IMG/VR virus record: IMGVR_UViG_2531839531_000012
Source: a virus
Lineage: Duplodnaviria > Heunggongvirae > Uroviricota > Caudoviricetes
DNA: 31,354 nucleotides
Strand: one strand, 5' to 3'
The position numbers and the translations under genes were made by a program. The notes under the pieces were generated by a model that saw nothing but the letters and a program-made list of their open reading frames with translations, did no database searches and was not told the DNA's origin. The first letter of the stretch is position 1, and each line of letters begins with the position of its first letter. Below are positions 1,529-21,391 of the stretch, one piece after another.

Positions 1529-2218
<690 letters not shown>

Positions 2219-2290
2219 TATGGCACCTGTGTTGTTCTGAGGTGAGCATATCACCTCTGTTCAGGTGGCCAAATTCAGTAAACCACTTCA

Positions 2291-9278: not shown

Positions 9279-9488
9279 ATGCATCGACTACCGGGCGAAA
9301 TTCCGCAGCACAAAACTAAAAGCATAAAACTGATGGCTATCGTTCATCGCTTGCAGACGATAATGGTCAATGAGAACCTGACGCCAGCGGAATTGGTCGG
9401 GTGTGCAGAAATAGTCAGGGATAACTACGATAAGCTGAACGATATCAGCAGGCCGACACAATATGCGCCACCACCATGTCGAAGATAG
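9279..9488 (+). CDS. Hypothetical protein (69 aa) flanked by the direct repeats
   Basis: GAGGG RBS 8 nt upstream. No recognisable motifs. Confidence 0.45.
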   Translation: MHRLPGEIPQHKTKSIKLMAIVHRLQTIMVNENLTPAELVGCAEIVRDNYDKLNDISRPTQYAPPPCRR

Positions 9489-9491
9489 CGA

Positions 9492-9568
9492 ACGCCGTCG
9501 GCGCTGAAACTTGCTTTCGGTACTGGAGGGTTGAACAACGAGTCCCTCTAGGGGTTAGTCTGTTCCGT
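9492..9568. repeat. Copy 2 of the ~75-bp imperfect direct repeat (immediately 3' of the 69-aa ORF)
   Basis: AACGCCGTCGGCGCTGAAACTTGCTTTCGGTACTGGAGGGTTGAA...GTTAGT; see copy 1. Confidence 0.6.
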
Positions 9569-9580
9569 AGAGATTGGCCC

Positions 9581-9606
9581 AAACCGGCACTATTAAAGCC
9601 GGTTTT
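9581..9606 (+). terminator. Rho-independent terminator
   Basis: AAACCGGC-actattaaa-GCCGGTTTT followed by TCG: 8-bp stem and a T-run. Confidence 0.6.
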
Positions 9607-9706
9607 CGTATGTCCAATCTAAAGAATGGGGGCTGACATCCCATCATCAGATTTGTGTTATTTTAGTGCTACTCATTCGTCATTAGACATTGTAAGGGCA
9701 ATGTAT

Positions 9707-10417
9707 ATGAAACCAAGCACACACTGCGTTTATTGCGGTGTTCTCATGAATAAGGTTGAAAATCACCCCCACTGCCGCTCAGTTGAACACATGATTCCGC
9801 AAGTTTCAGTCTCCATTCATAGAACCAACGGCGAAGGTGATTTCTATGTATGCAAAAAGTGCAATGGCGATAAAAGCCGAATTGACGAGGTGTTAGGTGT
9901 CATTTGCCGCATGGTAGGAGAGCACTCAACAGGCAGCTTTGATGCTGTTAATAAATTCCATAATGCGCTTAAAAGAAAAGACTCGAAATTTCGTGAAGCA
10001 TTCCAGAGTGTTAGGCATACAAAAAAAGGTGCGCAGATAACATTACCCCTAAATGGTAGGGAGATTTACCAATACGGCACCTGGTTAGCCAAGGGAGTAT
10101 TTTTCTTAGAGTATGGGCAATTGTTGACTGTAGATAAATTAATTTGGATTAATATCGTTCGCCACGATGAAGTAATGGCTATTAAAGAAATGTATAGAAA
10201 TGAACGTGGCTCTGAGGCATTTGATGATTTATCGAAGAATAGCAACATTCCAAATATTAATGGCGAGTCGTTTCTGATTGTTGGCCAGGATGCCCGAGAA
10301 ATGTTTATTTGCTTCAATAGAGTAATGATGTTTCATATAAAGATACTGGATAGAACGTTTATTAATCAAAAAAAATGCAAAAAAGCCCTACTCAATCTGG
10401 AAAAAAGGGTTCGATAA
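9707..10417 (+). CDS. HNH nuclease-domain protein with an uncharacterised ~160-aa C-terminal domain; cargo gene in the A-to-cos variable region
   Basis: 236 aa from the Met with a TAAGGG RBS. N-terminus has C-x2-C (CVYCG), EHMIPQ and CKKCNGDK, an HNH-type arrangement. Distinctly AT-rich. Terminator-like hairpins on both sides. Confidence 0.7.
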   Translation: MKPSTHCVYCGVLMNKVENHPHCRSVEHMIPQVSVSIHRTNGEGDFYVCKKCNGDKSRIDEVLGVICRMVGEHSTGSFDAVNKFHNALKRKDSKFREAFQSVRHTKKGAQITLPLNGREIYQYGTWLAKGVFFLEYGQLLTVDKLIWINIVRHDEVMAIKEMYRNERGSEAFDDLSKNSNIPNINGESFLIVGQDAREMFICFNRVMMFHIKILDRTFINQKKCKKALLNLEKRVR

Positions 10418-10442
10418 GATAAATAAGATGTAATGAATGTGT

Positions 10443-10463
10443 GCATGCCACTGCATTTTTTTG
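10443..10463 (+). terminator. Weak candidate terminator after the HNH gene
   Basis: ATGC-cact-GCAT followed by T7 (10456-10462), with flanking GCATGC palindromes. Confidence 0.35.
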
Positions 10464-10562
10464 CATGCGTTGATCCAACCGCCAAAACATAAGGAGTACC
10501 GGTAGTAGCTTAGCTAAAGCGAGGTCATGCAACTGCATTAAAACCGACCCATAAAGCGGGCA

Positions 10563-10581
10563 GGCGTGGCGGGGAAAGCAT
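10563..10581. other. Candidate cos cohesive-end sequence
   Basis: GGCGTGGCGGGGAAAGCAT resembles the 19-nt cohesive end recalled for P2 (GGCGAGGCGGGGAAAGCAC) and 186. It lies in the non-coding stretch beyond the portal gene's 3' end, where cos sits in a P2-family prophage. Confidence 0.55.
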
Positions 10582-10807
10582 TGCGCGCCAGCGGTGGTGC
10601 GTATTATTAAAAAATACCGTCTGAGTGCGTTGTGGTGGAGCTAACGAGAGCGTTGCTAGATCGTGGGAGTTCTGATGCGAACGTGGGGCTATGTTTTGTC
10701 TGTGGAGCGATGAGAGAGGGTGAGATCAGTCGCACAATTCTACGGCTGTGCTTCCGTTAATATCTTCATCGGTATGTCATGTTCCCTACCAACAGCTGGA
10801 GGCTTTA

Positions 10808-11032
10808 ATGGATAACTATCACATTACAAAAGATGGCGATAAGTGGAAGCTTCAAAAGGAAGGAAATGAGCGGCCTAGCAAGACTGCAACAACTAAGGCT
10901 GAGATCATCAAAGATACTCAAGATTACATGTCCAATAAGACTGGCTCAGTAAAAATTCACAAAGAGGATGGGAAGTTTCAGGAAGAGCGCACTTACCCTC
11001 GTAAAGCTGATCCTAAAAAGTCCAAAGGTTAA
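10808..11032 (+). CDS. Small DUF2188-like protein; cargo gene between cos and the portal gene
   Basis: 74 aa from the internal Met (MDNYHITKDGDKWKLQKEGNERPSKT...KIHKEDGKFQEERTYPRK). GGAGG RBS. AT-rich. Confidence 0.55.
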   Translation: MDNYHITKDGDKWKLQKEGNERPSKTATTKAEIIKDTQDYMSNKTGSVKIHKEDGKFQEERTYPRKADPKKSKG

Positions 11033-18802: not shown

Positions 18803-18947
18803 CCCGAAAACCAATGGTGACCTGAGCGCAGATATCCGCCGCCTTGAGGGTGCGCTGATCGCCTGCGCGCTACAGGTCAAAACCGTCAAACACTGTCAGG
18901 ATGAACTCGATGCAGAAGCACAAAAGCCTGCGCAAAGCGCTGATTAA
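18657..18947 (+). CDS. lysC: LysC, Rz1-like outer-membrane lipoprotein spanin, embedded in and extending beyond lysB
   Basis: +1 frame inside lysB. Lipobox LCVGC. Proline-rich mature region. Confidence 0.7.
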   Translation: MKMKPFAAGITLLYLMLCVGCTSAPPAPAPVIVVNGCPRVSLCPMPGSDPKTNGDLSADIRRLEGALIACALQVKTVKHCQDELDAEAQKPAQSAD

Positions 18948-19377
18948 CGCCGTGCCGCAGCTCCGAAACAACCCCGATATACTGCGCCTTTTTGCCGACA
19001 ACGGCCATACCGATTCCAGACTGGCGAGCTCGCTGTCGTTTGAAAAGGTGTACGTGCTTAACGTGGTGGTGACCGACTTCACCGGTGACCTTGATTTGAT
19101 ATTCGTGCCGGTGCAGGCGTGGCTGCGTGAACATCAGCCGGACATTATGACCACCGACGACGGGCGGGAAAAAGGATTCACCTGGATTATTGATATCAAT
19201 AACGACGATTCGCTCGATATCAGTATCAGCCTGAGGCTCACCGAGCGCACGCTCGTCAAAGAGGTCGACGGCGCGCTGCATGTCAGCTATGCCCCTGAGC
19301 CGCCGCTGCCTGAGCCGGTGACGCGCCCGGTCGAGCTGTACGTTAACGGCGAACTGGTGAGTAAGTGGGATGAGTGA
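18910..19377 (+). CDS. R: Tail completion protein gpR
   Basis: About 155 aa. P2 R-like (…DFTGDLDLIFVPVQAWLREHQPDIM…ELYVNGELVSKWDE). Start chosen at the Met with an AGGA RBS; 18901 is also possible. Confidence 0.8.
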   Translation: MQKHKSLRKALINAVPQLRNNPDILRLFADNGHTDSRLASSLSFEKVYVLNVVVTDFTGDLDLIFVPVQAWLREHQPDIMTTDDGREKGFTWIIDINNDDSLDISISLRLTERTLVKEVDGALHVSYAPEPPLPEPVTRPVELYVNGELVSKWDE

Positions 19378-19819
19378 GTTAACCGCACTGCAGGAACGCC
19401 TTGCCGGTCTGATTGCCAGCCTGTCACCGGCGGCGCGTCGGCAAATGGCGGCTGAGATTGCGAAAAAGCTGCGTACCAGTCAGCAACAGCGTATCAAGCG
19501 CCAGCAGGCACCAGACGGCACCCCGTATGCGGCACGAAAGCGCCAGCCGGTGAGGAGCAAGAAAGGTCGGATTAAACGTGAAATGTTCGCCAAACTGCGC
19601 ACCAGTCGCTTTATGAAAGCCAAAGGCAGCGACAGTGCGGCGGTGGTGGAGTTTACCGGAAAGGTGCAGCGCATGGCGCGGGTGCATCAGTACGGCCTAA
19701 AAGATCGGCCAAACCGAAACCGCCGGGATGTGCAGTACGAGGCGCGCCCGTTGCTCGGTTTCACTTGGAATGATGAGCAGGCAATTGAAGATATTATTAT
19801 CAGCCATTTAAATAAATAA
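19370..19819 (+). CDS. S: Tail completion protein gpS
   Basis: 149 aa. P2 S-like. Confidence 0.8.
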   Translation: MSELTALQERLAGLIASLSPAARRQMAAEIAKKLRTSQQQRIKRQQAPDGTPYAARKRQPVRSKKGRIKREMFAKLRTSRFMKAKGSDSAAVVEFTGKVQRMARVHQYGLKDRPNRNRRDVQYEARPLLGFTWNDEQAIEDIIISHLNK

Positions 19820-19838
19820 TTACTATGTGAGTCATTAC

Positions 19839-19866
19839 AGGAACTGTCAGAGTTGGTGCAGTTCCT
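19839..19866. other. Inverted-repeat hairpin at the boundary of the S-V insertion
   Basis: AGGAACTG-12 nt-CAGTTCCT: 8-bp stem. Lies between the S stop and the stop of the minus-strand cargo gene. Confidence 0.35.
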
Positions 19867-19893
19867 ATATTTAGGTATTAAGTTTGTTTTAGA

Positions 19894-20679
19894 TTATAAA
19901 GTTAAGTTTATCCCCAGCTCTTTTTTTGCAATATCTAATACATATTCGGAATTACTCCAAGAACCATTGGTGTCTCCACAACACTCAGGGCTCAGGCATA
20001 TGGTCAAGCAGGCTATTTTATTCTTATCAATGCCCGCCCTTACTGTTTTAAATAACTCCTTAATGAACGCGTCATCAATAAATTTAAGATAATGTTCACC
20101 TGTGAAGAAGTAGTCAAGATCAATATTGATGATGATTTTTTCATGGTTATCAATGGCGCTATCTAAATTCTCAAGAAGCTCATAAGGCTCAATGTCTCTG
20201 AAGCAATGATTAAAAGGATTCTGCGGGTATGTGCCATCATTGTGTGTTGCTAGATAAATACACTCAATATGGTTTTGAAGTGCATCATCTGAAATAAAAA
20301 AGGATAGATAATTATCCCACCGTATCAGTGGTGTTTTATTACCACCGACTGTTACCTCTAGACTTAAGTAGTCTAGATAGGATTTTAAATTGAACACCCC
20401 CGGAAATTTACTTATATAGGGTTCGTATAGGTTGAGAGTATCATAATGCCTATCAATATGAAATAATGCGATATTTTTATCAGGCTGTAAGTGTTGCATC
20501 CAGCACCATAGTGCGATTCTATGATTGTCACTAATGTATATATTACCATCCTGAGCAAGGAAGTTTAAATTATATGCCAATGATGGGCCTTTTTGGGTTG
20601 GCGGAATTAACAACTTCATAAGAACTCCATATAAAATATGTTTTCCCAGCAATGCTAACGCAAGAGCAATGCTTTTCAT
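19894..20679 (-). CDS. AT-rich cargo gene of unknown function between S and V, on the opposite strand to the late operon; possible metal-dependent hydrolase
   Basis: 261 aa (alternative start at 20619 with GGAG RBS). Motifs FHIDRHYD and INIDLDYFF. Strong compositional contrast with the flanking late genes. Confidence 0.65.
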   Translation of the reverse strand: MKSIALALALLGKHILYGVLMKLLIPPTQKGPSLAYNLNFLAQDGNIYISDNHRIALWCWMQHLQPDKNIALFHIDRHYDTLNLYEPYISKFPGVFNLKSYLDYLSLEVTVGGNKTPLIRWDNYLSFFISDDALQNHIECIYLATHNDGTYPQNPFNHCFRDIEPYELLENLDSAIDNHEKIIINIDLDYFFTGEHYLKFIDDAFIKELFKTVRAGIDKNKIACLTICLSPECCGDTNGSWSNSEYVLDIAKKELGINLTL

Positions 20680-20749
20680 AGCGTTGTGCCATCCCTGAAA
20701 GAAAATATCTGATTAGCAAATATTCCACCCAAAATTCAAAATAGTCCCT

Positions 20750-21391
20750 ATGAACACTCTGAACAGCATACAAGAATTAGCGCGCGCGATTCGCAACCTC
20801 ATCCGCTCAGGTGTGGTGACTGAGGTCGATATCGTGCAGGGGCTGTGCCGCGTACAAAGCGGTGGGATCCAGACTACATGGCTGAACTGGCTGACTACCC
20901 GAGCTGGACGCTCGCGCACATGGTGGGCTCCCTCGGTCGGTGAGCAGGTGCTGCTGCTGGCAATTGGTGGCGAGCTTGATACTGCTTTCGTGCTGCCGGG
21001 GATTTTCTCCGACGATAACCCCGCCCCATCTGCCTCGGCGGATGCATGGCATGTGGTTTTCCCTGATGGTGCGGTCATTGAGTACGAGCCCAAGACCAGC
21101 GCGCTGACGGTCAGCGGCATCAAGACTGCTGATGTGACGGCATCGCGATCCATCACGGCTACCGTGCCGTTGGTACTTGTGAAAGCAGAAACCCGCATAA
21201 CCCTCGATACCCCGGAGGTGGTTTGTACCAACAAGCTGACGACAGCAACGCTTGAGGTACAAAAGGGCGGCAAGATGAAAGGCAACATCGAACATTCCGG
21301 CGGGAAATTAACCTCTAACGGTGTGCAGGTTGATGACCATGACCACGGCAATGTGCAGAGCGGTGGAAGTTGGACTAAGGGGGTTAAATGA
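20750..21391 (+). CDS. V: Baseplate spike/assembly protein gpV
   Basis: 213 aa. P2 V-like. Confidence 0.85.
   Translation: MNTLNSIQELARAIRNLIRSGVVTEVDIVQGLCRVQSGGIQTTWLNWLTTRAGRSRTWWAPSVGEQVLLLAIGGELDTAFVLPGIFSDDNPAPSASADAWHVVFPDGAVIEYEPKTSALTVSGIKTADVTASRSITATVPLVLVKAETRITLDTPEVVCTNKLTTATLEVQKGGKMKGNIEHSGGKLTSNGVQVDDHDHGNVQSGGSWTKGVK

Follow-up and report, generated by a model that had tools for sequence, protein, structure and literature searches.

An antisense UPF0489 gene in the S-V slot of a 186-like Escherichia coli prophage encodes a predicted arginase-fold hydrolase with a possible role in phage conflict

The late genes of phage P2 are arranged in four operons, among them P_O, which comprises O, N, M, L, K, R and S, and P_V, which comprises V, W, J, I, H and G (PMC3931495). 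The orf30 locus between S and V is one of three sites at which P2-like phages carry morons, the other two being the TO region and the Z/fun locus (PMC3091744, PMC6823313), and the characterised cargos of these other two sites, old and tin in the TO region and fun in the Z region, are defence genes. In the P2 moron literature that we searched, the S-V slot was not described as a defence hotspot. A second body of work concerns the protein family UPF0489 (Pfam PF12640), whose only characterised members convert peptidyl-arginine into ornithine and urea. Here we describe an antisense UPF0489 gene (19894..20619, minus strand) between S and V in a 31,354-nucleotide (nt) stretch of viral DNA (IMG/VR record IMGVR_UViG_2531839531_000012; hereafter the window, meaning the whole stretch, to which all positions refer unless another locus is named). 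The window is a complete 186-like prophage of Escherichia coli A38, from the integrase gene through the late-control gene D. The cassette with the UPF0489 gene is horizontally acquired, holds a single gene and is under purifying selection; its product can with confidence be assigned to the arginase-fold hydrolases, and we tentatively favour an accessory role in conflict, to the benefit of the lysogen. The slot itself and the P2-moron concept were already known, and the protein is found in databases as 'hypothetical' or as 'UPF0489 family protein'.

The slot is flanked on the left by the tail completion (virion morphogenesis) gene S (19370..19819, plus strand; PF05069, E value 7e-39; operon position from PMC3931495), which follows R (18901-19377), and on the right by the baseplate spike gene V (20750..21391, plus strand; PF04717 and PF18715), as a preliminary description of this DNA had it. 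That description also took the gene to interrupt a contiguous late operon, which proved mistaken: S closes the P_O operon and V opens the P_V operon, which places the cargo between two operons, at the known orf30 site. The gap between S and V measures 930 base pairs (bp) in the window as opposed to 69 bp in phage 186, and base composition together with comparison of the junctions of 186 and of phage vB_EcoM-613R3 delimits a low-GC cassette of ~865 bp (19820..20684) that is missing in 186. Guanine-plus-cytosine (GC) content is 0.34-0.37 across ~19850-20750 against 0.55-0.64 on either side, which agrees with the low GC noted earlier for the open reading frame (ORF); the gene itself has a GC of 0.358 and a third-codon-position GC (GC3) of 0.355, and R, S, V and W have a GC of 0.56-0.57 and a GC3 of 0.61-0.74. 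Junctions without the cargo occur in phages 186, PSP3, SEN1, FSLSP004 and BIS20, in a series of Yersinia phages and in others, as well as in the ~30 E. coli prophages surveyed below. The gene is thus no core gene of this phage group, in keeping with the earlier suggestion that it is a moron and that related prophages might have an empty junction, and we regard its status as a moron at a known P2 hotspot as nearly certain.

The 261-codon ORF of the preliminary description (19894..20679, minus strand, ATG to TAA) is present exactly as given, but the gene proper is shorter and encodes a stand-alone protein of 241 amino acids (aa) from the ATG at 20619, which is M21 of the longer reading (residue numbers below follow the 261-aa numbering). 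Homologues are mostly 239-245 aa long and cover 92% of the ORF (n = 497), and the 60 nt added by the 261-aa reading (20620..20679, minus strand), which hold the Shine-Dalgarno sequence and a putative promoter, are not conserved as coding sequence. When loci from Citrobacter (L004), Enterobacter (L012), Klebsiella (L016) and Morganella (L007) were compared, the 60-nt stretch preceding the ATG that corresponds to M21 contained an in-frame stop in L012 and no start codon in L004, and GGAG stood 5-6 nt ahead of that ATG in every locus. This Shine-Dalgarno sequence lies in the window at 20625..20628 (minus strand), 5 nt before the ATG at 20619, and GGAGT is invariant in 9/9 aligned loci. Since the upstream 60 nt are not coding in the relatives and the GGAG is kept, we take 19894-20619 as the coding region; database annotations of the same protein are split between a 261-aa 'hypothetical protein' and a 241-aa 'UPF0489 family protein'. 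The hydrophobic N-terminus of the longer reading was considered as a signal peptide or membrane anchor and rejected, given the stop in L012, the lack of a start in L004, the overlap with the putative -35 hexamer and the 239-245 aa length of the homologues. The 241-aa start leaves an N-terminus without a hydrophobic leader, and the protein is therefore probably cytoplasmic.

The protein matched PF12640 (UPF0489, renamed FlmR_OhkR_N in later releases) with 33.8 bits, the cutoff being 27, and with an alignment to profile positions 1-39 of 167 only; homologues carry precomputed matches to the same family, and PHROG 32422 (unknown function) matches the protein end to end. A profile search of PDB sequences retrieved the peptide arginase OspR (8brp; E value 1.9e-6), aligned over the same motifs. 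The manganese ligands of OspR are H12, D39, H41, D43, D165 and D167 (PMC10028609), and their counterparts in the cargo protein, H53, D76, H78, D80, D187 and D189, are invariant both in an alignment of 41 sequences and in 12 diverse sequences. The preliminary description had drawn attention to the motifs FHIDRHYD and INIDLDYFF; both are present and hold invariant residues of a large family: the 41-sequence alignment shows no variation at D51-N52-H53, H74, D76, H78, D80, N123, D187, D189 and F191, nor at W58-C59-W60, T226, P231, W241 and E245. The predicted structure is very confident and has a three-layer alpha-beta-alpha arginase fold, the closest folds including agmatinase, guanidine hydrolase, metformin hydrolase and formiminoglutamase. 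Because the motifs and all six ligands align with those of OspR, the protein reads as a binuclear-metal enzyme of ureohydrolase fold, and the metal-binding, hydrolase-like fold proposed earlier thereby gains a family, UPF0489. That the cargo protein is an arginase-fold binuclear-metal hydrolase of this family is highly probable. The branch of histone deacetylases and acetylpolyamine amidohydrolases was also considered and set aside, as the protein has neither their single Zn2+ site (D, H, D) nor a structure closest to the deacetylases.

Searching 1.84 billion representative sequences with a family profile returned 865 clusters at E values up to 1e-3 and 349 at E values up to 1e-30, nearly all of them single-domain proteins of ~240 aa. 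The few longer members show no recognisable extra domain, so that domain fusions offered no clue to function. Invariant motifs peculiar to the family are WCW, RWDNY and LSPE-CC-GGW; within the peptide-arginase/ureohydrolase superfamily it forms a separate subfamily, stand-alone and with DNHR as its first metal motif, an assignment that is new here. The toxin activity suggested in the preliminary description finds no backing, as the gene has no partner or antitoxin gene and the protein no toxin-family match.

Compared with homologues in the same slot, the window gene has a non-synonymous divergence (dN) of 0.16-0.25 and a synonymous divergence (dS) at or beyond saturation, and where the ratio could be computed (same-slot homologues of 65-74% identity) dN/dS was 0.07-0.12. 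This bears directly on whether the ORF might be spurious or decaying, as its annotation as a 'hypothetical protein' and the lack of a strong predicted promoter could suggest. Such an explanation has practically nothing left to it in view of these dN/dS values, the 865 clusters with invariant catalytic residues, the very confident structural model and the conservation of the Shine-Dalgarno sequence and of a downstream hairpin. The backbone genes R, S and V have a dS of only 0.18-0.72 between the window, L004 and L016, as against saturation in the cargo gene, whose window allele shares 68-74% amino-acid identity with those of L004, L012 and L016. Because the cargo has diverged so much further than R, S and V, its alleles are older than the phage backbones that carry them, and presumably they have been swapped among prophages through recombination in the conserved flanks.

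The cassette appears to carry expression signals of its own. Between the convergent S and cargo genes lies a stem-loop (19836..19869) with arms at 19836-19846 and 19859-19869, 10/11 of whose positions are complementary (91%), and a 12-nt loop; the hairpin described earlier at 19839-19866 is thus real, but its stem is longer than the 8 bp then counted. Its folding energy on the cargo-sense strand is -15.0 kcal/mol, compared with -4.1 +/- 2.0 for shuffled sequences. A hairpin stands at the equivalent position in L004, L012 and L016 with stems that differ partly or wholly in sequence (for example CAGGAACTG/CAGTTCCTG versus ATAGGAGCC/GGCTCCTAT), and since the position is kept while the stem sequences change, we consider it a conserved structural element. 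It is probably a bidirectional terminator; a terminator scan did not call the hairpin at 19836-19869, which has no clear T-run. Upstream of the gene, a putative weak sigma-70 promoter (20652..20679, minus strand) consists of a -35 hexamer ATGAAA (20679-20674), which includes the ATG of the 261-aa reading, a 16-nt spacer and a -10 hexamer TAGCAT (20657-20652). In a nine-locus alignment the hexamer pair (A/T)TGAAA-16 nt-TAGCAT/TAGAAT is positionally conserved, reading TTGAAA/TAGCAT in L016 and ATGAAA/TAGAAT in L007, and it matches the sigma-70 consensus at 8/12 positions in the window and at 9/12 in L016 and L007. An Rfam scan of the region returned no structured-RNA match at E values up to 1.

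On the far side of the cassette, a TGT-N12-AGA dyad (20685..20702, plus strand) starts 65 nt upstream of the V ATG and is a putative B/Ogr activator site of P_V. The late-promoter consensus is TGT-N12-ACA (PMC3931495). The sequence TTGTGC...GAAAGAG around the dyad is conserved in all P2-borne copies of the cargo, and in the S-V spacer of phage 186 the first TGT is as far from the V ATG as the dyad is in the window, which suggests that the P_V activator site has been kept beside the cassette. Exact TGT-N12-ACA sites number 5 in the window against 7.1 expected; a match at 20245-20262, inside the cargo coding sequence, was therefore rejected as a late promoter and is probably due to chance. The inverted repeat within the coding sequence, TCTAGACT-5 nt-AGTCTAGA (20357..20377), is present as noted earlier, but its interpretation as a regulatory or recombination relic fails: the repeat is absent from 4/4 homologous genes examined, on which ground we attribute it to chance, and about one perfect 8-nt inverted repeat per kilobase (kb) is expected at this composition by a rough estimate. 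As a separate observation on V, the region 20703-20752 (plus strand) lacks the AGAGG Shine-Dalgarno sequence of phage 186, as it does in all prophages with the UPF0489 cargo, and TCA(A/C)AATAGT, which includes a -10-like CAAAAT, is conserved 6-8 nt before the V ATG. Speculatively, a transcript from CAAAAT could begin at or beside this ATG and give a leaderless V mRNA.

The S-V slot accepts more than this one gene. Among 70 complete E. coli genomes with a 186-type S/V pair, the junction is empty in ~30, carries the UPF0489 cargo in one (A38) and has S and V more than 1 kb apart in ~39, so that ~39/70 slots are occupied if such spacing counts as occupied. Four slots sampled out of these ~39 held four further cargos, each different, and the slot of phage vB_EcoM-613R3 holds another antisense gene, for a pentapeptide-repeat protein. 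The slot cargos recorded comprise a PD-T4-7-like protein of 287 aa (L019, 3449-4312; PADLOC E value 4.8e-9), a pentapeptide-repeat protein with a weakly SLATT-like N-terminus (L002, 2115-2951), a hypothetical protein of 347 aa on the sense strand (L020, 3362-4405), a pair of 140 and 170 aa (L021, 3417-4351), and a HIT-family protein with a 160-aa partner (L022, 3146-4265). With at least five cargos besides the UPF0489 gene in E. coli 186-like prophages, the slot is a hotspot for several cargos, a PD-T4-7-like gene among them, which is a new result of this analysis.

Homologues of the cargo gene recur in the same slot and orientation in 186-like prophages of Citrobacter (73% identity), Enterobacter (67%) and Klebsiella (70%) and as a second E. 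coli allele (76%), and 8/10 IMG/VR matches, at 61-100% identity, lie on contigs that, judged by size alone, resemble P2-like prophages. Beyond this setting, a Morganella homologue (63%) lies in an island with BrxC/helicase (BREX), insertion-sequence elements, DUF4145, PAAR/Tae4 remnants, a resolvase and GajA-GajB. At this locus (L007, 5905-6000), some 95 nt on the 5' side resemble the P2-borne cassette, including a degenerate form of the putative P_V dyad, which suggests that the island copy came from a P2-like prophage. In Bradyrhizobium the homologue (40%) adjoins SIR2 and HerA on an element that also encodes an integrase, a resolvase and ParB; a metagenomic element reads integrase, family gene, two unknown genes, GajB-GajA and ArdA; and the homologues of Salinispirillum and Maridesulfovibrio have, respectively, FRG-domain and ParDE neighbours and a CI-like repressor as neighbour. 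At about nine Rhodobacteraceae loci, on elements of RepC/integrase/ImmA type, a HEPN/RES-NTD1+RES protein is encoded 117-163 bp downstream on the same strand and is followed by a PIN protein. Members from all these contexts, and from the Gabija arrays described below, keep the same invariant residues. Several further observations belong here. The Rhodobacteraceae element seen at L075 (10001-13769; also L077, L078, L079, L093, L094 and L102) is of RepC/integrase/DUF1403 make-up with an ImmA/IrrE-HTH regulator after the PIN gene; RES-protein homologues lie within 8 kb of a family member in Chryseobacterium (L085) and Draconibacterium (L083); some loci of the predatory Bacteriovoracaceae have a Wzy_C-type protein downstream; and Erwinia billingiae has a truncated 171-aa copy directly after an integrase gene (L108, 8001-8516; L109, 6990-7505) within an apparently decayed P2-like remnant that has Ogr/Delta and fragments of terminase and portal.

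Gabija is a recurrent neighbour. The 150 nearest non-redundant neighbours include two complete Gabija systems (GajA, E value 3.7e-251; GajB, E value 1.2e-220), along with Schlafen/AlbA_2, HNH, DUF4143 and integrases. Co-directional GajA-GajB-UPF0489 arrays with gaps of 82-89 bp occur in three Chryseobacterium species (L082, 5982-10741; L085, 6053-10744; L087, 6056-10741) and in a proteobacterial group (L069, 3539-7907; L071, 6364-10732). In Chryseobacterium the array is followed by genes for a 333-aa unknown protein and for an 850-aa Upf1/Sen1-like superfamily 1 helicase, and the whole may represent either a Gabija variant with added genes or a defence island of tight packing. Overall, four independent contexts out of ~50 have Gabija at a distance of up to 5 kb. 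Gabija is present in roughly one genome in seven, at one locus per genome, and a rough estimate from this frequency puts the Gabija neighbours expected by chance at ~0.03; the association of the family with defence or mobile islands is therefore probably real. This recurrent linkage with Gabija, RES and other defence loci is new in this analysis.

Two rival explanations are best weighed against these contexts. The first makes the enzyme an accessory part of some larger system, for example Gabija, and an inactive orphan in the prophage, as the arrays in two unrelated lineages, with gaps under 90 bp, and Gabija at up to 5 kb in two more contexts could indicate. However, most members, including all copies in P2-like prophages, have no Gabija nearby, and the solitary prophage copies are under strong purifying selection. 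Moreover, clustering the neighbours at 69 loci, taken from a scan of species-representative genomes, gave lineage-specific synteny blocks only, which disposes of the idea of a universal partner gene. We consider the accessory explanation improbable. Marginally better, and still quite unlikely, is a role in anti-defence or inter-element competition, in which the enzyme would inactivate an immune protein of the host or of a rival, for example by deguanidinating a key arginine, to the benefit of the prophage. Carriage on mobile elements would suit such a role, one homologue's element also encodes the anti-restriction protein ArdA, and many anti-defence proteins are likewise small and stand-alone. 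Yet the antisense orientation with a putative promoter of its own is the layout of a lysogen-expressed gene and not of an early lytic counter-defence, the co-directional position right after GajA-GajB in two lineages fits poorly with a Gabija inhibitor, and both the known P2 moron cargos old, tin and fun and the PD-T4-7-like cargo of the same slot point to defence.

Taken together, we favour the following explanation. The P2 orf30 slot at the P_O/P_V boundary carries a self-contained, horizontally acquired cassette made up of a putative weak promoter of its own, a Shine-Dalgarno sequence, the 241-aa antisense gene and a terminator-like hairpin, and from these signals the gene would be expressible from the prophage independently of late transcription. 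The product is a single-domain enzyme of arginase/ureohydrolase fold, probably cytoplasmic, whose site for two metal ions would probably hold Mn2+. As its chemistry we propose that it hydrolyses a guanidino or amidino group, with a protein arginine side chain as the likeliest bearer of that group; peptidyl-arginine as the substrate is the doubtful part of this proposal. In the lysogen the gene would have an accessory function in conflict, most likely against phages, through irreversible modification of a component of the infecting phage or of a host factor that the phage needs. By analogy with old, tin and fun at the other moron sites, with the PD-T4-7-like cargo in this slot and with the contexts of the family, a conflict or defence role is quite possible, though short of probable, and the explanation as a whole, including that role, is offered at the same tentative level. 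A bolder version, which we think unlikely, would make the stand-alone ~240-aa UPF0489 enzymes an unrecognised single-gene immune family that converts arginine to ornithine on a phage or host protein, is spread by P2-like phages and is sometimes appended to Gabija. To our knowledge, protein deguanidination (arginine to ornithine) is a chemistry of no known defence system.

Several results weigh against a defence role. The literature searched held no link of arginase, ureohydrolase, UPF0489 or PF12640 to phage defence, and the protein matched 0 families of PADLOC-DB v2 at E values up to 1. The gene is rare, occurring in 1/5,426 complete E. coli genomes, and tblastn of 50,697 phage records returned no match to it. 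The promoter hexamers match the consensus weakly; a promoter scan left them under threshold and called no strong promoter. As for the chemistry, DNHR replaces the EEHxE motif of verified peptide arginases, and the substrate may therefore not be a guanidinium group. The 150 nearest neighbours span 113 Pfam families, mostly housekeeping, and at about ten Bacteriovorax loci (for example L050, 4357-10663) the gene adjoins metH and MTHFR in a conserved chromosomal position, a housekeeping-like setting that misfits a purely mobile defence role. The association with islands is no proof of defence either, because islands also hold toxin-antitoxin, anti-defence and accessory genes and because a sizeable part of the family lies among ordinary genes.

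The same Bacteriovorax position and the many housekeeping neighbours count in favour of a metabolic or physiological conversion gene, whose product would be a small-molecule guanidino or amidino hydrolase (agmatinase-, guanidinase- or formiminoglutamase-like) with no part in phage conflict. The closest folds, which include agmatinase, guanidine hydrolase, metformin hydrolase and formiminoglutamase, agree with this, as does the apparent absence from the family of most of the dimerisation domain that forms the peptide cleft of OspR (241 versus 309 aa). On the other hand, no transporters, regulators or pathway genes are linked to the gene, it recurs on prophages, integrative elements and defence islands, and its closest sequence relatives of known function act on peptides, OspR not processing free arginine. 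We judge a metabolic role unlikely, although it stands first among the rivals, followed in decreasing order by anti-defence, the accessory component, a maturase of peptides made on the ribosome and modified after translation (RiPPs) and a dead ORF; the final pair can in effect be ruled out.

The window has other candidate accessory genes as well. The first defence hotspot of P2, between the portal and replication endonuclease genes (9453-11032, plus strand), holds a neighbouring pair of hypothetical genes of low GC (0.40-0.44), WP_001407037 (275 aa) and WP_001407036 (249 aa), which may be a second, uncharacterised defence cargo. A DUF2511-domain gene lies between the CI repressor and integrase genes (1901-2239, minus strand), where the GC of the region is lowered to 0.47, and may be another accessory gene.

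Whatever its role, the slot points to an enzyme family of ~865 clusters; the relatives so far characterised all produce ornithine in peptides that are natural products. If the UPF0489 gene is protective, it would introduce a new immune effector chemistry, the deguanidination of a protein or metabolite, make the S-V junction a third defence hotspot of P2-like prophages, explain the recurrent third gene after some Gabija operons and provide a functional lead for the orphan human protein C5orf22 (PF12640). If it is not, the gene remains a cleanly delimited and readily cloned test case of an uncharacterised ureohydrolase subfamily.

Among known systems, the P2-family morons are the closest in setting. 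Like the UPF0489 cargo they are AT-rich, non-essential and missing from close relatives; orf30 of P2 and a 741-bp ORF of phage R18C occupy the same position with unrelated sequences, and the cargo protein is unrelated to the products of orf30, old, tin and fun. The 'GajC' of type II Gabija was considered as the family of the cargo and rejected, since GajC is MazF-like and unrelated. Human C5orf22, of unknown function, belongs to the same Pfam family, by which membership it is likened to the cargo protein, and differs in being eukaryotic; peptide-arginase activity has been hypothesised for it (PMC10028609; bioRxiv 10.64898/2026.05.28.728550). The conventional ureohydrolases (arginase, agmatinase, guanidine hydrolase and formiminoglutamase) share only 8-15% identity with the cargo protein, which is smaller, lacks their GGDHS and SxDxDxxDP motif contexts and has no residues recognisable by sequence as those that bind the amino-acid backbone.

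The nearest characterised enzymes are the RiPP peptide arginases, namely OspR of landornamide, FlmR/OhkR and BipC, which have in common with the cargo protein the Pfam family, the alpha-beta-alpha fold, the six metal ligands, the DxHxD and D(I/L)D motifs (HIDRHYD and NIDLDYF in the cargo) and a first motif of YxMxxH type. These likenesses, and the name 'peptide arginase family protein' that NCBI gives to one homologue, would be expected of a bona fide peptide arginase maturing a cognate precursor peptide. The differences make such a maturase very improbable. Verified peptide arginases have EEHxE as first metal motif, with a Glu (Glu11 in OspR) proposed to stabilise the guanidinium group, whereas the cargo family has DNHR (D51-N52-H53-R54), in which Glu11 gives way to an invariant Asn and the Arg after the His is nearly invariant. 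The NCBIfam model for peptide arginases of the FlmR/OhkR family (NF052474) scored 13.8 bits against a cutoff of 350. In OspR, a dimerisation domain (S170-S234) builds the peptide-binding cleft (PMC10028609), and the cargo protein, at 241 aa against 309 aa, is shorter by ~65 residues, roughly the size of that domain. The 930-bp slot holds one gene, with no precursor peptide ORF and no other maturase, its neighbours are tail genes, the sole short reading upstream (20 aa) is devoid of arginine and lacks conservation, and no recurrent partner gene emerged across the 69 loci. Because of the DNHR motif, the shorter length, the missing precursor or biosynthetic neighbour and the motifs of its own, the cargo protein falls outside the RiPP peptide arginases; it does belong, with them, to the wider UPF0489/ureohydrolase superfamily.

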